This document shows, in pieces, positions 11,019 to 42,115 of a stretch of DNA of 64,000 bases. The stretch is taken from contig DASTMO010000075.1 in NCBI GenBank assembly GCA_035714115.1, positions 10,291-74,290 of the forward strand. The letters run 5' to 3'. The position numbers and the translations under genes are program-made. The DNA comes from Alphaproteobacteria bacterium (lineage in GTDB: Bacteria > Pseudomonadota > Alphaproteobacteria > SMXQ01). Under the pieces are notes generated by a model. The model ran no database searches and was not told where the DNA came from. It was given only the letters and a program-made list of their open reading frames with translations. Position 1 is the first letter of the stretch, and each line of letters opens with the position of its first letter.

Positions 11019-11459
11019 CTATTTTTTAGGCCTATTTTTTAAGGCGACCTTCTTCCTGGCCGCCAATTTGGCGCGCGCCGGCCGCTTTGCCGGCACCAGG
11101 CCGAGCCGCTCCGGCAGACTGAGGTAGCCGTCGACCATAGACTCATATTCGGCGATGCATTGGCGCGACGGCTCTACAAGTTTCTTGCGCCCATCCTCCG
11201 GCGCGGCGACGAAGCGCACATAGCCGCGCGTCACCGCCGTTTGCAGGATGCGCCGCGCCGTCTCCTTGGAGCAGCGCACCTCCGCGATGCACTCTTTGAC
11301 GGTCGGCAGCTTCCGCTCGTAATAGCCGTACATGACGACCGACCAGATCACCGTGTGATCGCGCGTCAGTCGGAAATAGCGCACGCTCTTGCCGCGGGTC
11401 GATCGGTGTGTGCCGATGCGCCATTGCGCGAAGGCTTGATAAGCATTGGGGGAAGGCAT
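11019..11459 (-). CDS. Winged-helix (MarR-like) transcriptional regulator with a basic K-rich C-terminal tail
   Basis: The predicted wHTH segment is LPTVKECIAEVRCSKETARRILQTAVTRGYVRF. The C-terminal tail is AKRPARAKLAARKKVALKNRPKK. The family assignment is tentative. Confidence 0.45.
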   Translation of the reverse strand: MPSPNAYQAFAQWRIGTHRSTRGKSVRYFRLTRDHTVIWSVVMYGYYERKLPTVKECIAEVRCSKETARRILQTAVTRGYVRFVAAPEDGRKKLVEPSRQCIAEYESMVDGYLSLPERLGLVPAKRPARAKLAARKKVALKNRPKK

Positions 11460-11566
11460 GGTGCATCTTACGCTACTGCGCCGCGCGGCACACGAGCATC
11501 AAAAAGGCCCGACCCGCAATAGAGCCAGCTCGCGGTATCCACTTATAGATATTTGAATTGCTTGAA

Positions 11567-13432
11567 TTAATTCAGAGATCGAGGCGCTGCAGAGACGGCA
11601 CGAAGACCCACCTGATCGATATGACGCACAAGCCGCTCAACTTCACTGAGCAGTTGCTGCTCGGTAAACGGCTTCGTCAGAACGCCTATCTGCTCATAAG
11701 AGGATGGCAAATTTGCCCGTCCGTAGCCACTGACGAAAATAAACGGCACCTTCGCCCGCGTCAGCGCGGCAGCGACTTCGGTCACCGGCTTGCCGTGCAG
11801 ATTACCGTCCAGCAAAGCGACATCGAACTCGCGGGCCTCAATCATCTGAAGCGCCTGTTCGACCGTGCCGGCGGGACCGACGGCGGTGATTCCCGCATCC
11901 TCCAGCATTGCCTCGATTTCCAAAGCGATCATCGTTTCATCCTCGACGATGAGGACGCGGCACCCACGCAGCTTGCTTTCAGGCTGAGTGATTTCTGATA
12001 GCTGGGCGCTTTGCGGCTCTGGCGCTGGCTGTTTCGACGGTGCCGCGGCGAGCGGCAGCGGCATGATCAGGTCCCAAGCAATGCCGTCGGCACGATAATC
12101 CGCATGAGCCGCGCCACCCTCGGCTTTGGCGCTTTGCTCAATTAAAGTCGTCCCGAATCCGCGGCGCTTCGGCGCCTTCACGCGAGGGCCACCCTTCTCC
12201 AGCCAATTGAGGTGGAGCTGTTCATTCTGAATGCGCCACATCAAAGCCACGGTGCCGTCGGGCGTGGAAAGCGCCCCATACTTAAGCGCATTCGTGCATA
12301 GTTCGTGCAGAATGAGCGCGAGGTGCAAGGCGGTTTCGGGAGCCAGCCACACTTCGGGCCCAACGGCCTCGAAACGCGCAGCATCCACCGCGCCAAGTCT
12401 AAACTGATCTGCAATCAGGTCGCTCAAAGAAGCGCCCTGCCAGGTGGCCTCGCTCAAGAGCGAGTGCGCGCGAGCGAGCGACTGAATTCTTCCAGTAAAG
12501 TTGCGGGTGAAGACTCCTGGGTCCGGAGCGTGACGCAGCGTTTGCGAGGCAATGGCCTGCACCGTCGCCAGCGTGTTTTTGACCCGATGGTTCAGCTCGC
12601 CGATCAATAGCAGCTGCGTTTCCTCAGATCGCCGGCGCTCGCTCACATCCAAAATTTGCGCATTGATCGATACGGAACTGCTGATCGGATCGACCAGGAC
12701 CGAATAGTACCATTCGCACTCGACTGCAGAGCCATCCGCCCGCTTGTTGCGGCAAAGGCGCATATCACGCTCATCGATAAGCGAAGGCTCGGTGACGATA
12801 TCGCGAAGATAAGCAGCATCTCCAACGTCGATCCAATCGCATTCCGCCAGAGACTTTCCAACCATCTCATCGGCGCTCCAGCCAAAGAGACGGCTAGCCC
12901 CGGATGACCAATGGAGAATATTGAGGGCCGCATCGAATTCCACGACCCCGAGCGGCGAATTGTCGCGATGGGCTTCGAGACGGCGAAGCGCGCTCGCCAG
13001 ACTCGAAGAGTTCATGCGCAGTTCATCGCGTTGCGCGGCGAGCTCTTGGCGCTGACTTGCAAGCTCGAAAAACACATCCGCCTTGTTGCGTAGAATGAGC
13101 GGCTCGATGGGCTTTTGAATGAAGTCGACCGCGCCGGCCTCATAACCTCTGAAGCGGCGCTGATTATCCGCGATGCCGGCCGTCACAAAAATAATGGGAA
13201 TGCTTCTGGTGCGCTCATTGCCGCGCATCAACTCTGCGAGTTCAAAACCGTCCAGGCCGGGCATTTGCACGTCGATCAGAGCCAATGCCACTTCGTGCTT
13301 CAAGAGAAGCTCGAGTGCTTCGTCTCCGGAGCGCGCTTTTAGAAGGAGAATATTATCGCGGCGGAGCAGCGCCTCGAGCGACAGAAGATTCTCTTCCAGA
13401 TCGTCGACCAGCAGGAACGATACAGCCCTCAT
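11567..13432 (-). CDS. Hybrid response regulator / PAS / HWE-family (HisKA_2) sensor histidine kinase with a C-terminal receiver
   Basis: Domain order REC-PAS-HWE/HisKA_2-REC: N-terminal REC (LLVDDLEENL...DVQMPGLDGF), coiled coil, PAS, HWE/HisKA_2 H-box (HRVKNTLATVQAIASQT), N-box (HELCTNALKYGAL), and C-terminal REC (VLIVEDETMIALE). The start is set at ATG 13430-13432, which forms an ATGA overlap with the cheB stop. A GGGAGGG RBS lies upstream. Confidence 0.8.
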   Translation of the reverse strand: MRAVSFLLVDDLEENLLSLEALLRRDNILLLKARSGDEALELLLKHEVALALIDVQMPGLDGFELAELMRGNERTRSIPIIFVTAGIADNQRRFRGYEAGAVDFIQKPIEPLILRNKADVFFELASQRQELAAQRDELRMNSSSLASALRRLEAHRDNSPLGVVEFDAALNILHWSSGASRLFGWSADEMVGKSLAECDWIDVGDAAYLRDIVTEPSLIDERDMRLCRNKRADGSAVECEWYYSVLVDPISSSVSINAQILDVSERRRSEETQLLLIGELNHRVKNTLATVQAIASQTLRHAPDPGVFTRNFTGRIQSLARAHSLLSEATWQGASLSDLIADQFRLGAVDAARFEAVGPEVWLAPETALHLALILHELCTNALKYGALSTPDGTVALMWRIQNEQLHLNWLEKGGPRVKAPKRRGFGTTLIEQSAKAEGGAAHADYRADGIAWDLIMPLPLAAAPSKQPAPEPQSAQLSEITQPESKLRGCRVLIVEDETMIALEIEAMLEDAGITAVGPAGTVEQALQMIEAREFDVALLDGNLHGKPVTEVAAALTRAKVPFIFVSGYGRANLPSSYEQIGVLTKPFTEQQLLSEVERLVRHIDQVGLRAVSAAPRSLN

Positions 13433-14004
13433 CTCGCCGTACCCTCCCGAAGGTAATCCGCAATCTCGCTCAGCGACATCACGGCAGCTCCCGGGCATAG
13501 CGCGATCGCCGCCTCCGGCATGGCCGAGGAAAAGGCCTTAAGCGGATCTTGCACCAGAACCACGCCGCCCGCGTCCGTGATCGCGCGCGCGCCCTGGGCA
13601 CCGTCCTGATTGGCCCCAGTCAGAATCACCCCGATTAACCCAGGGCCGTAAACATCCGCCGCGCTTTCGAACAGCACGTCTATCGACGGCCGAGAGAAAA
13701 GCACCGGCTCATCGCTCGAAAGCGAAAGGCTTTCTTCGCTCTCGACGAGCACGTGATAATCGGGAGGGGCAAAATATATTGTGCCGGGCTCGATAGGCTC
13801 TTTGTCTTCGATCTCACGAACGTCGACTTGGCATTTCGCCTGAAAGAGTTCCGCCAGCACGCTGCGTTTGTCCGGCGGGACATGGACGACCACAAACACC
13901 GGCAATTTGAAGTTCGCCGGTAAAGTTGTTAGCACGGCCGACAAGGCTTCGAGAGCGCCGGCAGATGCGCCAATGACGATCGCTTTGGCTTGAGACGCCG
14001 TCAT
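13429..14004 (-). CDS. cheB: CheB-type protein-glutamate methylesterase, catalytic domain only (no receiver domain)
   Basis: MTASQAKAIVIGASAGALEAL...VVVHVPPD...DVLFESAADV covers the Ser, His and Asp regions of CheB_methylest. The ATG overlaps the cheR stop as ATGA. Confidence 0.85.
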   Translation of the reverse strand: MTASQAKAIVIGASAGALEALSAVLTTLPANFKLPVFVVVHVPPDKRSVLAELFQAKCQVDVREIEDKEPIEPGTIYFAPPDYHVLVESEESLSLSSDEPVLFSRPSIDVLFESAADVYGPGLIGVILTGANQDGAQGARAITDAGGVVLVQDPLKAFSSAMPEAAIALCPGAAVMSLSEIADYLREGTAR

Positions 14005-14840
14005 ATGGCGCGCCTCTGATAAATTTTTTCGTCGCGGTCGAAATCCGCAAAGAAATTTGCATGACGAGAAAAGCGCAGGCTTTCCTTTGCGCCGAGCCCC
14101 AAGAACCCCTTTCGCGACAGCGAATCCTTGAATAAGCCGAGCGCCCGATCCTGCAAGCCGCGGTCGAAATAGATCAAAACGTTGCGGCACGAAACAAACT
14201 GCATCTCCGCGAAAACGGCGTCGGTCACCAGACTATGGTCAGAGAACACGACGTTGCGCCGCAGGCTCTTATCGAAGGCCGCGCGCCCATATGCGGCTTG
14301 GTAATAGTCCGACAAAGAGGATTTACCGCCGGATTTGCGGTGGTTTTCGGTGAACAGCTGCATGCGTTCCAGAGCGAAAATCCCGGATTCCGCAGCGTGA
14401 AGAGCATCCTGATTGATGTCGGTCGCATAGAAAATCGTGCGCTCCTCGATGCCCTCCTCGCGAAAGAGAATGACCATCGAATATAACTCTTCGCCGCCGC
14501 TGCAGCCGGCAATCCAGACTTTGAGCGACGGGTAAGTCCGCAAATGCGGCACCAGCTTTTCACGAATGACGCGAAAGTAGCCAGGATCGCGGAACATCTC
14601 GCTGACCTGAACCGTCAGATAGCCCAACAGCCGTGGCAGCATGGAAGGCTCATGTAGCAGACGGTCCTGCAAGGCGGAGATCGTCGCAAAACCCAACTGA
14701 TCGCGCGCCTGACGAAGACGGCGCTTGATGGACGCCATCGCGTAATTGCGAAAATCGTAATGATATTTCAGGTACAGCGCCTCCAAGAGGAGCCGTATTT
14801 CGATATCTTCGATTTTCTCCGGCGCCGCATCGTCCGTCAT
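14001..14840 (-). CDS. cheR: CheR-type protein-glutamate O-methyltransferase
   Basis: CheR N-terminal helical region and SAM-dependent methyltransferase domain (VWIAGCSGGEELYSMVIL...NVLIYF). ATGA overlaps at both ends. Confidence 0.85.
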   Translation of the reverse strand: MTDDAAPEKIEDIEIRLLLEALYLKYHYDFRNYAMASIKRRLRQARDQLGFATISALQDRLLHEPSMLPRLLGYLTVQVSEMFRDPGYFRVIREKLVPHLRTYPSLKVWIAGCSGGEELYSMVILFREEGIEERTIFYATDINQDALHAAESGIFALERMQLFTENHRKSGGKSSLSDYYQAAYGRAAFDKSLRRNVVFSDHSLVTDAVFAEMQFVSCRNVLIYFDRGLQDRALGLFKDSLSRKGFLGLGAKESLRFSRHANFFADFDRDEKIYQRRAI

Positions 14841-17800
14841 CGCGGCATCCAGACACGCACAAGCGACAGGAGCTTTTCGACATCCAGCGGCTTCGCCATG
14901 TAATCGTTGGCACCGGCATCGATACAGCGCTGCTGATCGTCGGGCATAGCCTTAGCTGTCAGGGTGATGACCGGCAGCTTCTTCAAAAGGGGATTCTTGC
15001 GGATTTCCCTGGTTGCGGTGAGACCATCCATCACTGGCATCATCACGTCCATCAGCACCAGATCGATGGCCGCATTGGGGTCTTTCGCCGACTGCTCAAG
15101 GACGGTCAAAGCTTCCTGGCCGTTGCGCGCGATTTGGACGACCGCTCCGCGAGGCTCGAGAATATTTGTTAAGGCGTAAACGTTCCGGATGTCGTCCTCG
15201 ACCACCAGAATTCGCCGGCCTTCCAGCAAAGCATCCCGGCTTCTCGCCTTACGGATCATGCGTTGATGCTCATCCGGCAGCTTCGATACCACCTGATGCA
15301 GGAAGAGACTGACCTCGTCCAACAATCGCTCCGGGGACTTCGCGCCTTTGATGATGATCGATTTGGAATAGCGGCGCAGCCGCTGCTCGTCATCGGCGGA
15401 AAGCTCTCTGCCGGTGTAAACGATGACCGGCGGGAAGGAGTGGGGCCCACCTTCGCTCAGCGTTTCGAGCAAGGAATAGCCTGAGGCATCCGGCAACGAC
15501 AGATCCAGGACCATGCAATCGAACGTCTCTTCTTTGAGATGTGCGAGGCACTCAGCCGCCGTGCCAACCGTGACTGCCTCAACCTCATGGGACGTCAAAA
15601 GCTTGGCCACCGCTTCTCGCTGAACGATGTCGTCTTCGACGATGAGGATACGCCGCACCCGCTGCGATAATCGATCATTGAGCCTGGTCAGCACATCGAC
15701 CAGCTGCTCGCGTTTGACGGGCTTCAGCTCATAGCCGATCGCGCCGAGCGAAAGCGCCGTTTCGGCCTGATCGCTCGCCGACACGACATGGATGGGGATA
15801 TGGCGCGTTTTGACGTCTTGCTTCAGCCGATCCAGCACCGACAAGCCGGATTGATCAGGCAAGCCCACGTCGAGAACGATCGCATTGGGCATATAATGTT
15901 GGGCGAGGTTCAAAGCCTCTTCGGCCGTACCGGCGACGAGCGATTTGAAACCCATTTCGCGCGAAAGATCGCGCAGGATGGTCGCGAAGCTGTCGTCATC
16001 CTCAACGACCAAGAGCACGCGCTTAGAGCCGGCTTGCTCGGCACGATCGTCTTCGACTTTACGGATGCGGCCCGGCAGGGCCGGCTGCGGCGTTTCCACC
16101 TTGGGCCCGGATGGCGCCGGCATGCTCTTTTGAGCATTGCGCGCCACGACCTTGGCCGGGTCGTAGGACACCGGAACCGTAATCGTGAAGGTGCTGCCTT
16201 TTCCCAGTTCGCTATCGAGGTTGAAATCGCCGCCTAACAGGCGAACCAGCTGACGTGAGATAGACAGTCCCAGGCCGGTGCCGCCGTATTTTCGGCTGAT
16301 CGTGCTGTCCGCCTGATGGAAGGCTTCAAAGACATGACTTTGCTGGCCTTCAGCAATGCCGATGCCCGTGTCGGAGACCGCAAAGGAAATGCGCTCGTCG
16401 CTCGCCCGGCGAATCGACAAGCTGACTTTGCCCGTCTCGGTGAATTTGAAGGCATTGGACAAAAGATTTTTAAGAACCTGCTCGAGCCGCAGCGGATCGG
16501 TGTCCATGAGTGGCGGGCATTCAGGCTCGATCTGGACGACGAACTGCAACTTTTTCTGCTGAGCGACGGGCTGGAAGAGCTGGCGCAAATTGCCCGCCAA
16601 CCGCTCGACGGCAACCGATTCAGGTTTGATGTCCACATGGCCGGCCTCGATCTTGGAAAGATCGAGGATGTCGTTGATGAGCGTCAGCAGATCGTTGCCG
16701 GACGATTGAATCGTTTGAGCATATTTGACTTGCTCGGCTGTCAGATTGTCGTCCGGATTGTCGGCGAGAAGCTTGGCGAGAATCAACGAGGAATTCAGCG
16801 GCGTGCGCAATTCGTGCGACATGTTCGCCAAGAAGTCCGATTTATATTGGCTTGCCTGCTCTAACTCCCGGGCTTTGAGCTGCACCGAGATGTTGGCTCG
16901 CTCCAGATCGTCCTTCTGCAATTCGAGCTGCTGAGTTTGCTCTTCCAGCTGGGAATTCGTCTGCTCAAGCTCGGCCTGCTGTTGCTCAAGCCGCGCTTGC
17001 GATTCCTTAAGCGCGCGACCTTGCTCTTCCAGCTCTTCGTTGGACACGCGGAGCTCTTCACTTTGCGTTTGCAGTTCTTCCGATTGACGTTGGGTTTCTT
17101 CCAAGAGGTTCTGCAGTTCGCTGCGATAGTTGGCCGAGCGCATGGCGATCGCCACCGGGGCGGATGCCTCGTCCAACAGGGCGAGCATGCTTTCATCGAC
17201 CGGCCCTAAGAAACCCAGCTCGATGACGGAAGTGACCGCGCCATCGACGCTATTGGGGACAATCGCAAGATGCCTCGGCTTGTCGCTCCCCAATGCCGAA
17301 CCGAAGGCGATGTATCCGTCGGGAATTTCGCTGATCACTCTCGGGCGATTTTCCGCAGCCGCCTGCCCCAGCAAGCCGCCTCGCAGGTGGAATTTTGCCG
17401 GAACGTTCGCGGTCTCCGGCACTCCATATGTGGAGGCGCGCCGGAAGGTCTCACCGGCGCCGATGAAAAGCGCGCCGGCAACGGCCCCAAGATAGCGCGC
17501 CAAGAATTCGAGAATATTATTCCCGAGCTGCTCGATAGATTGATCGCCGGCCATCGCGGCCGCCAATTCAATCTGCCCCTTTTGCAGCCACTCCTCGCGC
17601 CGGCGCGCCAATGTCGCCCTTCGGGTCAGGAAGCCGATCGTTGCCGTGAGGAAGATGCCCAACAATCCAGAAAGCAAACCGCTGGCAAGCGCTGTCGCTT
17701 GCGCTTCTTTCATTTCCGCTAAGCGTTTGACGCGAGTGCTGGTCTCTTCTTGAGCCACTGCATCGAGCTGCGCTCGAATGGCGTCCATTTCCGCTTTGCC

Positions 17801-18268
17801 GCGATCGGAATTGACGATCGCCAGCGCCGCTTCAAAACCTTGCGTGCGGCGTATTTCGATTGTCTGCGTGAGCTCCCGAAGTTTGGCGGCCACATGCGTT
17901 CTCAATGCGGCGATTCTCGGCGTTTGAGCTGCGTTATCGCCGGTCAGTTCGGCAATCTTGTCGAGTTTGGAGGGAATGTTCTCCAAAGCCTCGCTGTACG
18001 GCTGAAGATACGCCTCGTTGTTCGTCAGCAGAAAACCGCGTTGTCCCGTCTCCGCATCTTGCGTGCTGGACAACAGCTCATCGAGCGCGACGATCACGGT
18101 ATGCGTGCGGACGACCTTCTCATTGCCCTCGCGCAAAGCTTCGAGGTTGAAATAGGCGACCGTGCCGCTAACGATAAAAAAGACCAGAGCGCCCGCTAGA
18201 CCTAGCGAGACAACAGGATCCAGCCCCAGTTTGCGCACTGAACTCTGTGGCATCGCGCTCTTTTGCAT
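14837..18268 (-). CDS. Hybrid sensor histidine kinase: TM, CHASE3 periplasmic sensor, TM, GAF, EELQ-repeat coiled coil, HisKA, HATPase_c, three receiver domains
   Basis: 1143 aa. Two TM helices flank a CHASE3 signature (ETGQRGFLLTNNEAYLQPY). H-box SHELRTPLNS. G-boxes. Three REC domains (VLLVVEDDDSF.., ILIVEDDIVQ.., ILVVEDDIRN..). Confidence 0.9.
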   Translation of the reverse strand: MQKSAMPQSSVRKLGLDPVVSLGLAGALVFFIVSGTVAYFNLEALREGNEKVVRTHTVIVALDELLSSTQDAETGQRGFLLTNNEAYLQPYSEALENIPSKLDKIAELTGDNAAQTPRIAALRTHVAAKLRELTQTIEIRRTQGFEAALAIVNSDRGKAEMDAIRAQLDAVAQEETSTRVKRLAEMKEAQATALASGLLSGLLGIFLTATIGFLTRRATLARRREEWLQKGQIELAAAMAGDQSIEQLGNNILEFLARYLGAVAGALFIGAGETFRRASTYGVPETANVPAKFHLRGGLLGQAAAENRPRVISEIPDGYIAFGSALGSDKPRHLAIVPNSVDGAVTSVIELGFLGPVDESMLALLDEASAPVAIAMRSANYRSELQNLLEETQRQSEELQTQSEELRVSNEELEEQGRALKESQARLEQQQAELEQTNSQLEEQTQQLELQKDDLERANISVQLKARELEQASQYKSDFLANMSHELRTPLNSSLILAKLLADNPDDNLTAEQVKYAQTIQSSGNDLLTLINDILDLSKIEAGHVDIKPESVAVERLAGNLRQLFQPVAQQKKLQFVVQIEPECPPLMDTDPLRLEQVLKNLLSNAFKFTETGKVSLSIRRASDERISFAVSDTGIGIAEGQQSHVFEAFHQADSTISRKYGGTGLGLSISRQLVRLLGGDFNLDSELGKGSTFTITVPVSYDPAKVVARNAQKSMPAPSGPKVETPQPALPGRIRKVEDDRAEQAGSKRVLLVVEDDDSFATILRDLSREMGFKSLVAGTAEEALNLAQHYMPNAIVLDVGLPDQSGLSVLDRLKQDVKTRHIPIHVVSASDQAETALSLGAIGYELKPVKREQLVDVLTRLNDRLSQRVRRILIVEDDIVQREAVAKLLTSHEVEAVTVGTAAECLAHLKEETFDCMVLDLSLPDASGYSLLETLSEGGPHSFPPVIVYTGRELSADDEQRLRRYSKSIIIKGAKSPERLLDEVSLFLHQVVSKLPDEHQRMIRKARSRDALLEGRRILVVEDDIRNVYALTNILEPRGAVVQIARNGQEALTVLEQSAKDPNAAIDLVLMDVMMPVMDGLTATREIRKNPLLKKLPVITLTAKAMPDDQQRCIDAGANDYMAKPLDVEKLLSLVRVWMPR
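16852..17122 (-). repeat. Low-complexity coding repeat encoding a Glu/Gln-rich heptad coiled coil (SEELQTQSEELRVSNEELEEQ...LEEQTQQLELQ)
   Basis: gagctg/cagctg/ctcttc motifs recur in the DNA. The translation is a roughly 90-residue EELQ-type repeat between the GAF and HisKA domains of the CHASE3 kinase. Confidence 0.7.
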
Positions 18269-18631
18269 ATTGGTCTCGTCAGCATTGAGGAATTGGGCAT
18301 GAAGACCTCATGCGGCGCGCATGCGAGTTCTCGCAGCATCGCCGAGACATGAAGCGTGAGGATTTAACGGTAGCGCGACGGTTTGGCGGGCATCGGTGAG
18401 TTACGTTTGGGATGCGAAAACGTTCCGTCACCCAACTGATTAAATGCATCCAAGGCGATCATGCTGAGTCAGAGGTGCTCAGGGAGCACATCCGACTGAT
18501 CAGCAAGATGCGCGATCATCAGATACGGACCAGAAGGAAAGCCATTCGGTTGCAGAAAAAGTCGGGGATTCCGAACCTGCGCAAGCTCCCGAAATCACGC
18601 ACAACCCATTGATATATAGTGATAATTAAGA

Positions 18632-18725
18632 TGGCGGAGGGGGTGGGCTTCGAACCCCGCCGGCCGCGCTGATGCGCGCGGCCGCCACTTCATAGCCAGT
18701 AGGTTCGAACCCACGCGATGCGCTG
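18632..18725 (-). repeat. Degenerate partial copies of the tRNA-Ser 3' end (T-arm and acceptor); possible att-site remnant
   Basis: tggcggagggggtgggcttcgaacccc (18632-18658) matches the 3' end of the adjacent tRNA-Ser with one mismatch. A second ggttcgaacccac fragment lies at 18702-18714. Confidence 0.55.
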
Positions 18726-18739
18726 ATCAAAAGGGGAAA

Positions 18740-18829
18740 TGGCGGAGGGGGTGGGATTCGAACCCACGGTACCCTCGCGGGCACAACGGTTTTCGAGACC
18801 GCCCCGATCGACCACTCTGGCACCCCTCC
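18740..18829 (-). tRNA. tRNA-Ser (anticodon CGA)
   Basis: The reverse complement folds as a class II tRNA of 90 nt. Acceptor GGAGGGG, long variable arm, anticodon stem GCGGU/ACCGU with loop CUCGAAA, T-arm GTGGGTTCGAATCCCAC, encoded CCA. Confidence 0.85.
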
Positions 18830-38287: not shown

Positions 38288-40534
38288 TCAGAAAAAGCTG
38301 TAGGGGTCCATGTCGACCTGAACCCGCACATTGGCCGGCTCAGGGACCGCCGCCAGCCAGCGCCGGATGGCGCTTTGCAGGGCGAATTTCTTGGGCGCGC
38401 GCAGCAAAAATCGCCGCCGATGGCGGCCGCGCAGCAGGCTAAGGGGGGCCGGGGCCGGCCCCAGAACCCGAAGGGCCGGATCGGCGGGCGCGGCGCGGGC
38501 CAATTTGCGGGCATGGGCGTCCACCGCCCCGGCGTCCGGGCCGGACAGGATCAGCGCCGCCAGCCGGCCATAGGGCGGCATGCCCGCCGCCTCGCGCGAA
38601 TCGGCCTCCGCCGCCATGAAGGCGTCGCGCGCGCCCCGGGCGAGCGCCTGCATCACCGGATGTTCCGGGGCGTAGGTCTGCAAGCAGACATGGCCAGGCT
38701 TGCCGGCGCGCCCGGCGCGCCCGGCCACCTGGGTCAAAAGCTGGAAGGTGCGTTCGCCGGCCCTGAGATCGCCGCCGGCCAGGCCGAGATCGGCATCGAC
38801 CACCCCGACCAGGGTCAGGCCGGGGAAATGGTGGCCCTTGGCCACCACCTGGGTGCCGATCAAAAGGTCGATCTCATGGTCCGTCACCTGACGCACCAAT
38901 TCCTCGGCGGCATGCGGCGTGGTCAGGGTGTCGCTCGCCATCACCGCGCGGCGCGCGTCCGGGAACAATTGCGCCGCCTCTTCGGCAAGGCGTTCGACGC
39001 CCGGTCCGCAGGCGGCCCAGCTGTTCTTGTCCTGGCAGGATGGGCAAACCTCCGGCAGCTTCATCGTGTGGCCGCAATGGTGGCATTCGAGCCGCGCGCG
39101 TCCGCGATGCTCGACCATCCAGGCGGTGCAGTTCGGGCATTGGATGCGATAGCCGCAGGTACGGCAGAGCGTGAGCGGCGCATAGCCGCGCCGGTTGAGG
39201 AACAGCATCGCCTGGCCGCCGGCCGCTAGCGTATCGGCGAGACGCTTGTGCAGGATCGGCGAGAGCCATTGGCCGCGCGGCGGCGGATCCTTGCGCAAAT
39301 CCACCAGCTCGACGTCGGGCAGGCTTGCGCCGCCGTGGCGATCGGCGAGATGCAGATGGGCATAGCGCCCGCCCTGCGCGTTCACCAATGTTTCGAGCGA
39401 CGGCGTGGCGGAGACCAGCACGACCGGAATCTCGCCTAAGTGCGCGCGCACCACCGCCATGTCGCGCGCCGAATAGAGCACGCCTTCTTCCTGCTTGAAG
39501 GAGCCGTCATGCTCTTCGTCGATGATGATGACGCCGAGATCCTGGAACGGCAGGAACAGAGCCGAGCGCGCGCCGACGACGACGCGCGCCGATCCGTCGG
39601 CCACGCCGCGCCAGGTCGCGCGCCGCCGTGCCGGCGTCACTTCCGAATGCCAGATCGCCGGCGCGGCGCCGAAGCGCGCCTTGAAGCGCGCGAACCATTG
39701 CGCCGAAAGGGCGATTTCCGGCAGCAAAACCAGGGCTTGTTTGCCCTCTTCCAGCGCCGCGGCGATGGCCTCGAAATAGACCTCGGTCTTGCCCGAGCCG
39801 GTGACGCCGTCGAGCAGAGTCGCGCTGTAGGCGTTCGCCTTGGTCTTCTCGATCAAGTCGCGCGCCACTTCGGCCTGATCGGGCGACAGCACCGGGCGCG
39901 GCAGCGACAAATCCGGCGCATCAAACGGCGACGGCTGCGACAGCGCCACCGCTTCGAGCGCGCCCGCCGCGACGAGGCCGTGGATCACGGAAGTGCCGAC
40001 GCCCGCTTCGCGCGCCAATTCGCTCGCTACGCGCGGCGGGCCATCGGCCAGCACCTTCATCACGCGGCCACGCGCCGGAGTGAGGCGCAGATCGGCGTCG
40101 TTCCAGCTATCCACAGGTTTGTATGCGGTGACCGGCGTCGGCGCGTCGAGCGCGTCGGGCACGCTGATGACCATTTTGAGCACGGCGCCCGGCGGAGTCA
40201 GCGTATAGCTCGCCACCCAATCGACGAACTTGCGCTGCACATCCGACAGCGGCGCGGCGGGCAGGACGCCGATCACTTCCTTCAACTTTGCGAGAGGGAC
40301 GTCCTCGCCATCGGCTTCGTCGCGATCCCACACCACGCCGATGCGCTCTTTCTTGCCGAGCGGCACGGCAACGACGGCGCCCGGGACCAGCTCCGCCGCG
40401 ATGTCCTCGGGCGCGAGATAATCGTACGGCCCGGCCAGGGGCAAGGGCAGCAAGACGCTGACGCGCTTGCGCTTGTCCGGCGCGGCGGCAACGGCCTGCG
40501 GGCTGGCCTGAAAACTGGTGCGGGAGGCGGGCAT
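38288..40534 (-). CDS. priA: Primosomal protein N' (replication restart helicase PriA)
   Basis: Walker A GVTGSGKT, DEAH-like DEEHD, Cys4 zinc-binding motifs (CRTCGYRIQCPNC...CHHCGH...CPSC). The start is Met at 40532-40534. The track ORF is artifactually extended upstream. Confidence 0.9.
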   Translation of the reverse strand: MPASRTSFQASPQAVAAAPDKRKRVSVLLPLPLAGPYDYLAPEDIAAELVPGAVVAVPLGKKERIGVVWDRDEADGEDVPLAKLKEVIGVLPAAPLSDVQRKFVDWVASYTLTPPGAVLKMVISVPDALDAPTPVTAYKPVDSWNDADLRLTPARGRVMKVLADGPPRVASELAREAGVGTSVIHGLVAAGALEAVALSQPSPFDAPDLSLPRPVLSPDQAEVARDLIEKTKANAYSATLLDGVTGSGKTEVYFEAIAAALEEGKQALVLLPEIALSAQWFARFKARFGAAPAIWHSEVTPARRRATWRGVADGSARVVVGARSALFLPFQDLGVIIIDEEHDGSFKQEEGVLYSARDMAVVRAHLGEIPVVLVSATPSLETLVNAQGGRYAHLHLADRHGGASLPDVELVDLRKDPPPRGQWLSPILHKRLADTLAAGGQAMLFLNRRGYAPLTLCRTCGYRIQCPNCTAWMVEHRGRARLECHHCGHTMKLPEVCPSCQDKNSWAACGPGVERLAEEAAQLFPDARRAVMASDTLTTPHAAEELVRQVTDHEIDLLIGTQVVAKGHHFPGLTLVGVVDADLGLAGGDLRAGERTFQLLTQVAGRAGRAGKPGHVCLQTYAPEHPVMQALARGARDAFMAAEADSREAAGMPPYGRLAALILSGPDAGAVDAHARKLARAAPADPALRVLGPAPAPLSLLRGRHRRRFLLRAPKKFALQSAIRRWLAAVPEPANVRVQVDMDPYSFF

Positions 40535-40642
40535 GGGATACACTCTAACCGCGCTTCGCGCCCGAAGCCACGACGCGGCCATGACGCCACGCGCCTGTTT
40601 CGCCCCGCCCGCATACACCCTCTTTTTCGAGCATAGCCCGCC

Positions 40643-41326
40643 ATGAAATTCTTCATCGACACCGCCGACACCAACGACATCCGCGAACTGGCGGCGACCG
40701 GCCTGCTTGACGGCGTGACGACCAATCCCTCGCTCATCGCCAAGAGCGGGCGCAATATGATCGAAGTGATCAAGGAGATCTGCGACATCGTTCCCGGCCC
40801 GGTGAGCGCCGAAGCGGTCTCGATGGATCACGCCACCATGCTCGCCGAAGGCCGCAAGCTCGCCGCCATCGCGCCGAACGTGACGGTGAAGGTGCCGTTG
40901 ACACCCGACGGGCTCAAGACCTGCAAGGTGCTGTCCGACGAGGGCCGCCAGGTCAACGTGACGCTCTGCTTCTCCGCCGGCCAGGCGATCCTCGCCGCCA
41001 AGGCGGGCGCGACCTATATCTCGCCCTTCATCGGCCGCCTCGACGACATCAGCATGGACGGCATGGAGCTGATTGCCGACATCTGCCACATCTACGAACA
41101 GTACCCTGACTTCAAGACCCAAGTGCTCGCCGCCTCGATCCGCCATCCGCTGCATCTGATCCAGGCCGCCAAGCTCGGCGCCCATGTCGCCACCCTGCCC
41201 GGCTCGGTCATCCGTCAGCTCTATCAGCATCCGCTGACCGACAAGGGTCTCGCCGCCTTCACCGCCGATTGGGCCAAGACCGGCCAGTCCATTCTCGGCG
41301 ATTCTAAGAAGTCGGCGGCGGAGTAA
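40643..41326 (+). CDS. tal: Transaldolase / fructose-6-phosphate aldolase family protein (short type 3B)
   Basis: [16 protein letters not shown]...Schiff-base Lys region TVKVPLT. 227 aa. Confidence 0.8.
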
Positions 41327-41332
41327 GTCGGC

Positions 41333-42115
41333 ATGAGTCCGCGCGGCCCCCGCGACAGATCGGACAGCCTCGCCGCGAGCGAGACGAGCGCCCTCGCGCC
41401 CGAAACGCCGGCGCAGCAGGCGATCTCGGCCGATCTCGTGGCCGGCTATCTGCGCCGCCATCCCGAGTTTCTCGCGCAATATCCCGACCTGCTGGAAACG
41501 CTGAAGCTGCCGGGCCGCTTCGGTCCGCAGCCGGGCCCGCGCGTGAAGGGCGGCGTGATCGACCTGCAAACGGCGATGATGGAGCGCCAGCGCAGCGAGA
41601 ACGCCCGCCTGGCGACGCTGCAAGCGGAGCTCCTGGCCACCAGCCGCGCCAACATGTCGAGCCAGCAGCGCATCCATGCCGGCGTGCTGGCACTTCTGGA
41701 AGCGACCACCTTCGAGCATCTGATCTCGGCGATCACCACCGATCTCGCCGTGCTGCTCGATGTCGATGTCGTCGCGCTCTGCGTCGAAGCGCCGGAAGGC
41801 CATCACCATCGCGACGTCGCCGGCGTGCATATCCTGACGCCGGGCGATGTCGACGCCATCATGGGCACGCGCGACACGTTGCTCACGCCGGCGCTGCACG
41901 GCCAGAACCCGCTCTACGGCGCGGCGGCGACGCTGGTGCGCTCCGAAGCGCTCTTGCGCCTGCGCCCCTCGGCCACCTCGCCGACCGGGCTTCTCGCGCT
42001 CGGCTCGCGTCACGAAGGCCGCTTCGACGCCAGCCAAGGCACCGAGCTGCTCGGCTTCCTCGCCCGCATCCTCGAGCTTTGCATCCGCACATGGCTGGGT
42101 CTGCCGCGCGACTGA
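41333..42115 (+). CDS. DUF484 (GAF-like) family protein, conserved partner of XerC
   Basis: DUF484 signature (VAGYLRRHPEFL). It sits immediately upstream of and overlapping xerC, as in many proteobacteria. Confidence 0.7.
   Translation: MSPRGPRDRSDSLAASETSALAPETPAQQAISADLVAGYLRRHPEFLAQYPDLLETLKLPGRFGPQPGPRVKGGVIDLQTAMMERQRSENARLATLQAELLATSRANMSSQQRIHAGVLALLEATTFEHLISAITTDLAVLLDVDVVALCVEAPEGHHHRDVAGVHILTPGDVDAIMGTRDTLLTPALHGQNPLYGAAATLVRSEALLRLRPSATSPTGLLALGSRHEGRFDASQGTELLGFLARILELCIRTWLGLPRD

Follow-up and report, generated by a model that had tools for sequence, protein, structure and literature searches.

A cheR-cheB pair set between two hybrid histidine kinases, and a heptad-phased Glu-Glu coiled coil as its candidate target

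We analysed a 64-kb stretch of DNA (the window) from an 85-kb contig (DASTMO010000075.1) of an alphaproteobacterial metagenome-assembled genome (MAG). It carries four consecutive minus-strand genes that encode a membrane hybrid histidine kinase (HK1), a CheR-type methyltransferase, a CheB methylesterase and a second kinase flanked by receiver domains (HK2, referred to as gene 4). An original prediction, made by reading the DNA alone, had described these genes as a methylation module inserted in a two-component system. The domain orders and coordinates given there for the four genes were recovered with the list of open reading frames (ORFs) and Pfam (Table 1), and the three ATGA stop/start overlaps joining them, at 14837-14840, 14001-14004 and 13429-13432, were seen by direct reading of the sequence. 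The overlaps had been taken to imply obligate co-translation and fixed stoichiometry; they show neither by themselves, and because ATGA overlaps are frequent in high-GC operons we did not retain this claim. The longest ORF forms of the third and fourth genes extend over 13429-14190 and 11567-13498, and the forms of 191 and 621 amino acids (aa) considered here begin at the ATG codons at 14004 and 13432, respectively. The three receivers of HK1 all have the acidic pocket, the phospho-accepting Asp, the Thr/Ser and the Lys, according to their sequences. None of the four proteins scored above the cut-off of an NCBIfam family; partial, sub-threshold similarity was highest to TorS, HrmK and BarA in the case of HK1 and to EpsF in that of the gene 4 receiver.

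Table 1. Position of the operon genes, their domains and associated features in the window
Feature	Position	Strand	Evidence
Gene 1 (HK1), membrane hybrid histidine kinase, CHASE3-GAF-coil-HisKA-HATPase-REC-REC-REC, 1143 aa	14837..18268	-	ORF list, Pfam
HK1 CHASE3 sensor domain, aa 49-184, presumed periplasmic	17717..18124	-	Pfam PF05227, E=1.8e-40
HK1 GAF domain, aa 243-376	17141..17542	-	Pfam GAF_2 and GAF
HK1 Glu/Gln-rich coiled coil, aa 385-475, proposed methyl-accepting segment	16844..17116	-	Translation, conservation, heptad register
HK1 four consecutive Glu-Glu pairs (E390/391, E397/398, E404/405, E411/412), candidate methylation sites	17033..17101	-	Translation
HK1 HisKA/DHp domain, Pfam HisKA aa 476-543	16640..16843	-	Pfam
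HK1 phospho-accepting His485 codon	16814-16816	-	Coil translation ends ...NMSH; H485 invariant in 77/77 sequences
HK1 HATPase_c catalytic domain, aa 591-700	16169..16498	-	Pfam
HK1 three receiver domains, ~aa 751-1137	14858..16018	-	Pfam Response_reg, three stretches
Gene 2, CheR-type protein-glutamate O-methyltransferase, 279 aa, start overlaps HK1 stop	14001..14840	-	Pfam CheR_N + CheR, alignment to 5FTW
Gene 3, receiver-less CheB methylesterase/deamidase, 191 aa, start overlaps CheR stop	13429..14004	-	Pfam CheB_methylest, triad
Gene 4 (HK2), REC-PAS-HWE kinase-REC, 621 aa, start overlaps CheB stop	11567..13432	-	Pfam Response_reg, PAS, HWE_HK/HisKA_2, HATPase_c_2, Response_reg
Terminator-like hairpin with T-run, ~40 nt past HK2 stop	11509..11528	-	Terminator scan

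Judged by their sequences, the products of genes 2 and 3 are a genuine CheR and a genuine receiver-less CheB with intact catalytic motifs. In agreement with the original prediction, the profile searches placed them in Pfam CheR_N plus CheR and in CheB_methylest, respectively. The best alignment of the gene 2 product was to Bacillus subtilis CheR (5FTW), with the GCSxGEE, ATDI and CRNVxIYF motifs present and the S-adenosylmethionine (SAM)-binding motifs intact. The gene 3 product consists as a whole of CheB_methylest, which spans aa 9-185 of its 191 aa and profile positions 1-174 of 174, and it has no receiver, as had been claimed. When it was compared with the catalytic domain of Salmonella CheB (1CHD), the segments GASAGA/GASTGG, VHVPP/QHMPP and RPSIDVLF/RPSVDVLF were aligned and the catalytic triad was retained. 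Thus, two features of the canonical pathway, a CheR_N domain with a SAM-binding domain and the Ser-His-Asp triad of CheB, are both present at this locus. In 67 diverse receiver-less CheBs the triad residues (S14, H41 and D109) never vary, which argues for an enzymatic function. This receiver-less family is large: 769 representatives, one for each cluster of 50% identity, were recovered at E<=1e-30, and nearly all of the best 150 are ~190-210 aa long. Two cluster representatives, P0121 and P0125, are proteins of ~560 aa with two tandem CheB methylesterase domains separated by a zinc-ribbon-like cysteine motif (CPDCGG...CRTGH), an architecture that we did not encounter among the cassettes.

We scanned species-representative genomes with an alignment of receiver-less CheBs, which matched at least 600 stretches, and examined 80 of these loci by domain mapping; all 80 were seeded only by the receiver-less CheB. 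Approximately 78 of the 80 showed the same gene order, with an HK1-type protein (CHASE3-GAF-coil-kinase-REC x3) followed by CheR, CheB and a REC-kinase. The hosts belong to Alpha-, Beta- and Gammaproteobacteria, Planctomycetota, Verrucomicrobiota, Acidobacteriota, Myxococcota, Bdellovibrionota and Bacteroidota. In 62 of 79 loci cheR and cheB overlapped by 4 nt, and in 72 of 77 cheB and gene 4 overlapped or were at most 20 nt apart. The type of kinase encoded by gene 4 was HWE in about 10 of 78 cassettes and HisKA in the others, with or without a C-terminal REC. Our locus has the same plan, in which a first gene encoding CHASE3-GAF-HisKA-HATPase with C-terminal receivers is followed on the same strand by cheR and cheB and then by a gene for an N-terminal receiver joined to a kinase. 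Its assignment, by architecture and gene order, to the cassette known as cfcABCD or BmsA-type in Pseudomonas is well supported; taken alone, the locus adds a further example of a widespread gene set. The conserved linkage of cheR-cheB to two kinases in ~78 of 80 loci across many phyla makes it a well-supported reading of these gene neighbourhoods that the enzymes serve the phosphorelay rather than methyl-accepting chemotaxis proteins (MCPs). Other arrangements were also found: a gene for a single-domain receiver lies between HK1 and cheR in L081, L121, L129, L133 and L134, cheR-cheB is upstream of the kinase in L108, L115 and L135, and L142, L145 and L157 have a CheB-CheR fusion gene after the kinase.

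The original prediction had also presented the operon as the likeliest candidate in the window for a mechanistically undescribed system. The arrangement had in fact been reported, as cfcABCDE in P. putida and as the BmsA-type cluster (P. brassicacearum genes 3082-3079), and it is only the role of CheR and CheB that is undescribed (PMC4951495, PMC8175716). CfcA (PP_3761) is a multisensor CHASE3/GAF hybrid kinase with a phospho-accepting His496, CfcB and CfcC correspond to CheR3 and CheB3, and CfcD has a REC domain (PMC4951495, PMC6849547). As at our locus, the genes encode in order a CHASE3/GAF hybrid kinase, CheR, CheB and a protein with a receiver, no MCP, CheA or CheW belongs to the cluster, and the phospho-accepting His is found near residue 490 (H496 in CfcA, H485 in HK1). 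In contrast, the fifth gene, cfcE, has no counterpart at our locus, where the next ORF encodes a protein of 146 aa; the orphan GGDEF/EAL response regulator of the cfc pathway, CfcR, has none in this window; and gene 4, unlike the cfc cluster, encodes an HWE-type kinase with a PAS domain and a second REC. According to a passage of PMC4951495 that cites Garcia-Fontana 2013, a chemotaxis role of the cheR/cheB pair of the cfc cluster was ruled out.

In PMC8175716, genes 3082-3079 of P. brassicacearum are described as encoding a hybrid kinase, CheR, CheB and a hybrid kinase, BmsA of P. alkylphenolica as a CHASE3/GAF kinase, and the BmsA-type cluster as tied to biofilm and motility phenotypes. This four-gene context is exactly that of our locus, by description and not by sequence comparison. 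Similarly, the likeness to CfcA, CfcB, CfcC and BmsA is one of architecture and gene order, not of sequence orthology, and no Pseudomonas homologue appeared among the top 120 protein matches seeded from the Moraxellaceae CheB of locus L063. In the literature on the cfc/BmsA cluster, on CheB-CheR fusions and on CheR-like or CheB-like proteins with a coiled coil, we found no account of what CheR and CheB do; a 2025 preprint on HsbA mentions CfcA, and not CheR or CheB. The arrangement is known, and what the present analysis adds is a concrete, testable candidate target for the two enzymes.

In textbook accounts, bacterial chemotaxis owes its memory to the reversible methylation of glutamates, which is not known outside chemoreceptors. 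We searched the window ORFs of at least 60 aa by phmmer, using as queries the window's own REC and kinase domains together with the E. coli Tsr signalling-domain and CheW sequences. Only the four operon genes matched. The claim that the window has no MCP, CheA, CheW or CheY-like gene was thus borne out for MCP, CheW and other receivers; for CheA the evidence is indirect, as there was no further kinase-core or CheW-like match and no CheA-specific query was made. The Tsr and CheW queries are effective, since they detected the MCP and CheW genes present in loci L008, L020, L025 and L076. A chemosensory gene set just outside the window had been named as a finding that would overturn the prediction; in a 98.4%-identical relative (GCA_044226095.1), the ~10 kb past the left end of the window contain metabolic and transport genes only, with no MCP or CheW. 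The remaining genes of the window look like housekeeping genes when their translations are read by eye, without a profile search (ribosomal proteins, obg, proBA, ATP synthase, priA and enzymes of the TCA cycle).

These data bear on the idea that CheR and CheB of the cassette act on MCPs encoded elsewhere, in which case the kinases would regulate them or simply be co-expressed, coupling an envelope signal to chemotaxis adaptation. All the known substrates of CheR and CheB are MCPs, and both proteins are bona fide members of their families with intact active sites, as this idea would have it. However, MCP or CheW genes were found within 10 kb in only 4 of the 80 related loci and were absent in 76, while the kinases were adjacent in all of them; moreover, the CheB of the cassette lacks the receiver through which CheA acts, and a chemotaxis role was ruled out for the P. 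putida homologues in the passage mentioned above. We consider this explanation unlikely.

We then turn to HK1 as the possible substrate. Between its GAF domain and the H-box, this kinase has a Glu/Gln-rich segment (LLEETQRQSEELQTQSEELRVSNEELEEQGRALKESQARLEQQQAELEQTNSQLEEQTQQLELQKDD...) whose 13 heptads (L385 to L469) are unbroken and lead in register into His485, with no gaps or stutters between L385 and H485. Leu occupies position a and Gln, Ser or Thr position d, the surface positions are nearly invariant, and the segment aligns free of gaps across all the phyla sampled. The coil had a mean conservation of 0.83, below that of HisKA (0.89) but above that of the ATPase domain (0.74) and far above that of the two sensor domains, CHASE3 and GAF (0.55-0.58). 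All seven heptad positions are conserved, the solvent-facing e, f and g to the same degree as the core. Such conservation all around the helix suggests that more than dimer packing constrains it, for example recognition by an enzyme. The Glu-Glu pairs occupy positions f and g of four consecutive heptads, and each Glu is retained in 65-77 of the 77 orthologues. Runs of three heptad-phased [DE]EL motifs were present in 62 of the 8252 ORFs of the 80 loci, and every one of these 62 is an HK1 orthologue. The classical methylation consensus of MCPs, E-E-x-x-A-S/T with heptad spacing, derives from Tsr and Tar (EETAAS, EQLTAT); the HK1 heptads do not fit it exactly, so we do not claim them as classical extended consensus sites.

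A metagenome scan seeded with the HK1 coil recovered relatives from 94% down to 42% identity, and the counts that follow are restricted to those with enough flanking DNA. An adjacent cheR was present in 18 of 20 loci whose kinase has at least three phased EEL heptads, and in 2 of 18 with one or none (Fisher p=1.5e-6, without correction for common descent). The same type of coil was observed in a different protein context, the CheB-CheR fusions that carry the KEGG-style name 'two-component system CheB/CheR fusion protein'. Three of these, from unrelated plasmids of Azospirillum sp. B510 (WP_247894479.1), Sagittula stellata (WP_232281594.1) and Nostoc HK-01, have arrays of EEL heptads after the CheR domain that match the consensus E-E-x-x-A-S/T at a spacing of seven residues. 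A protein-database search with the fusion coil returned short fragments only, many of them named CheB/CheR fusion protein or with PAS_10, and no full architecture.

Like our locus, the Azospirillum and Sagittula fusions combine CheB and CheR with a kinase or PAS output and no MCP, and their array, detectably similar to the HK1 coil, is in the same protein as the enzymes and is a better fit to EExx[AS][ST]. They differ in being a single polypeptide with CheB before CheR, whereas at the locus CheR precedes CheB in separate genes; they have no CHASE3/GAF kinase, and their CheR domain is only ~30% identical to the CheR of the locus. The suggestion that the operon is an unfused version of the CheB-CheR-PAS-HWE kinases is thus supported by the shared EEL coil, but the coil is in HK1 and not in the HWE kinase, and the low identity of CheR, the reverse domain order and the scarcity of HWE kinases among the cassettes speak against it.

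The CheB representatives also included natural fusions of the type CheB-REC-HK (P0131), CheB-REC (P0127 and P0134) and CheR-CheB (P0246 and P0253), and the REC that follows CheB in the first two types shares 47-50% identity with the N-terminal receiver of gene 4. The CheB-REC(-kinase) proteins suggest that the gene 4 receiver stands in for the regulatory domain that CheB lacks, and from this similarity it may be proposed that CheB acts in a complex with that receiver, which HK1 could phosphorylate. An isolated CheB catalytic domain is active and feedback can come from substrate access that depends on conformation, so a receiver-less CheB is compatible with adaptation.

In the mechanism that we propose, the CHASE3 domain of HK1 would sense an envelope signal and transmit it through the long parallel coiled coil to His485 in the DHp, while CheR would methylate, and CheB demethylate, Glu residues in the Glu-Glu heptads of the coil (E390-E412). 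Methylation would shift the charge and packing of the coil and reset the output of the kinase, so that a histidine kinase would itself undergo adaptation or gain control, independently of any MCP, CheA or CheW. HK1 would phosphorylate the N-terminal receiver of gene 4, among other receivers, and this receiver would work with CheB in place of the missing regulatory domain, closing a feedback loop. As in canonical chemosensory adaptation (MCP, CheA, CheW, CheR and REC-CheB), the two enzyme families are present with intact active sites and the proposed substrate would be Glu-Glu pairs seven residues apart in a long coiled coil that governs a histidine kinase. The canonical system differs in having an MCP and CheW, neither of which was found at this locus (CheA was not directly queried), and a CheB with an N-terminal receiver phosphorylated by CheA, whereas the CheB of the locus is receiver-less. 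In addition, the kinase of the locus is a classical HisKA dimer that would be controlled in cis by its own helix, whereas CheA is controlled in trans by the receptor array.

We give a probability of about 0.5 to the reading in which the HK1 coil is the substrate of CheR and CheB and the gene 4 receiver provides the feedback. It is quite possible, and we put it forward tentatively, that the at least 600 stretches of species-representative genomes matched in our scan, distributed over at least nine phyla, embody a form of methylation adaptation in a two-component phosphorelay that is independent of MCPs and CheA and in which the receiver of CheB is supplied in trans by the REC-kinase encoded downstream. 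The idea that the module provides methylation-based adaptation to a phosphorelay, already contained in the original prediction, is sustained insofar as the enzymes appear to serve the kinases; the methylation target is a proposal drawn from the sequence.

Several observations weigh against modification of the HK1 coil. We found no biochemical report of kinase methylation in the literature. The heptads of the fusion proteins come closer to the MCP consensus than do EELQTQS, EELRVSN and EELEEQG of HK1. The counts that associate EEL heptads with cheR are phylogenetically non-independent, and two loci (L122 and L149) have four phased EEL heptads and no cheR within ~4 kb. GAF-coil hybrid kinases with a similar Gln-rich coil and no adjacent cheR/cheB also exist (e.g., L143-L148 and L159-L163), so this type of coil is not exclusive to the cassette. 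According to an unpublished statement in PMC4951495, P. putida mutants in the other cfc genes retained the CfcA-dependent crinkly phenotype; this indicates that CheR and CheB are dispensable for signalling as such, as would be expected of a modulatory module. Finally, the source genome is a MAG and the MCP survey covers the window plus ~10 kb of a relative, a circumstance that also favours the explanation based on MCPs encoded elsewhere.

The methylation target could instead be the REC-kinase of gene 4 or one of the receiver domains, with CheB docked there. The fusions of CheB to a REC similar to that of gene 4, and the overlapping or very short cheB-gene 4 junctions, fit this proposal. Nonetheless, the kinase of gene 4 varies in type among cassettes and its C-terminal REC is optional, no gene 4 protein has three phased EEL heptads in a run, and regulation of CheB, on the model of the canonical REC-CheB, would account just as well for the fusion to a REC; this target seems to us improbable. 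We likewise give little credence to the view that the HK1 coil is conserved solely as a signal helix from GAF to DHp, with CheR and CheB having another substrate or a non-catalytic scaffold role: the Gln-rich coils that precede the DHp in related kinases without cheR/cheB nearby and the phenotype of the cfc mutants agree with it, but the CheB catalytic residues are invariant, the solvent-facing positions of the coil are conserved like its core, the number of EE heptads tracks the adjacency of cheR, and an EEL heptad array also accompanies CheB-CheR in the fusion proteins.

Regarding the surroundings of the operon, a promoter scan found no sigma-70-like promoter on the minus strand upstream of HK1. 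The hairpin downstream of gene 4 plausibly marks the end of the operon; its position alone points there, as such sites are no commoner than chance in the region. The 146-aa ORF mentioned above (11019-11459, minus strand) follows gene 4 in the same orientation after ~108 nt; its product has a basic C-terminus, matches nothing in Pfam or NCBIfam and is kept in the close relative. A tRNA-Ser(CGA) gene (18740-18829, minus strand) directly precedes the operon, and a 27-nt near-perfect copy of the 3' end of this tRNA occurs at 18631-18657, at a distance of 108 nt. In L001, a 98.4%-identical relative, the identity breaks off at window position 18747, at the 3' end of the tRNA, past which the relative carries an integrase, a Methyltransf_21 gene and a tRNA-Leu instead. 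The tRNA-Ser site looks like a recurrent integration hot spot; no third copy of the 3' repeat that would delimit an island was found, with up to 3 mismatches allowed. The third-position GC content of the four operon genes is 0.65-0.70, compared with 0.83-0.91 in almost all their neighbours, and the overall GC content falls to 0.57-0.61 across 10-20 kb. Together with the position next to a tRNA gene, these values suggest that the cassette was acquired horizontally. Elsewhere in the window, the longest ORF of the region (38288-42037, minus strand, 1249 aa) has an N-terminal portion of ~480 aa rich in Arg, Gly and Ala that resembles an out-of-frame artefact of high-GC DNA; the remainder resembles the primosomal helicase PriA, by eye only, and the true start is probably internal.

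The kinases of loci L143-L148 and L159-L163 constitute a paralogous family of GAF-coil hybrid kinases whose Gln-rich coil before the DHp (ELQARSEELQDQQVELQRSNAELEDKA...) has few EE pairs, and they offer a natural negative control for the methylation hypothesis. For P. putida, the four EE pairs upstream of the phospho-accepting His provide specific residues for work on CfcA and CfcR, which belong to a c-di-GMP pathway related to salt and biofilm formation. If the proposed mechanism is true, two-component systems in general could make use of methylation to adapt, and two long-standing oddities, the many 'orphan' CheR/CheB pairs and the CheB-CheR fusion proteins, would be accounted for.

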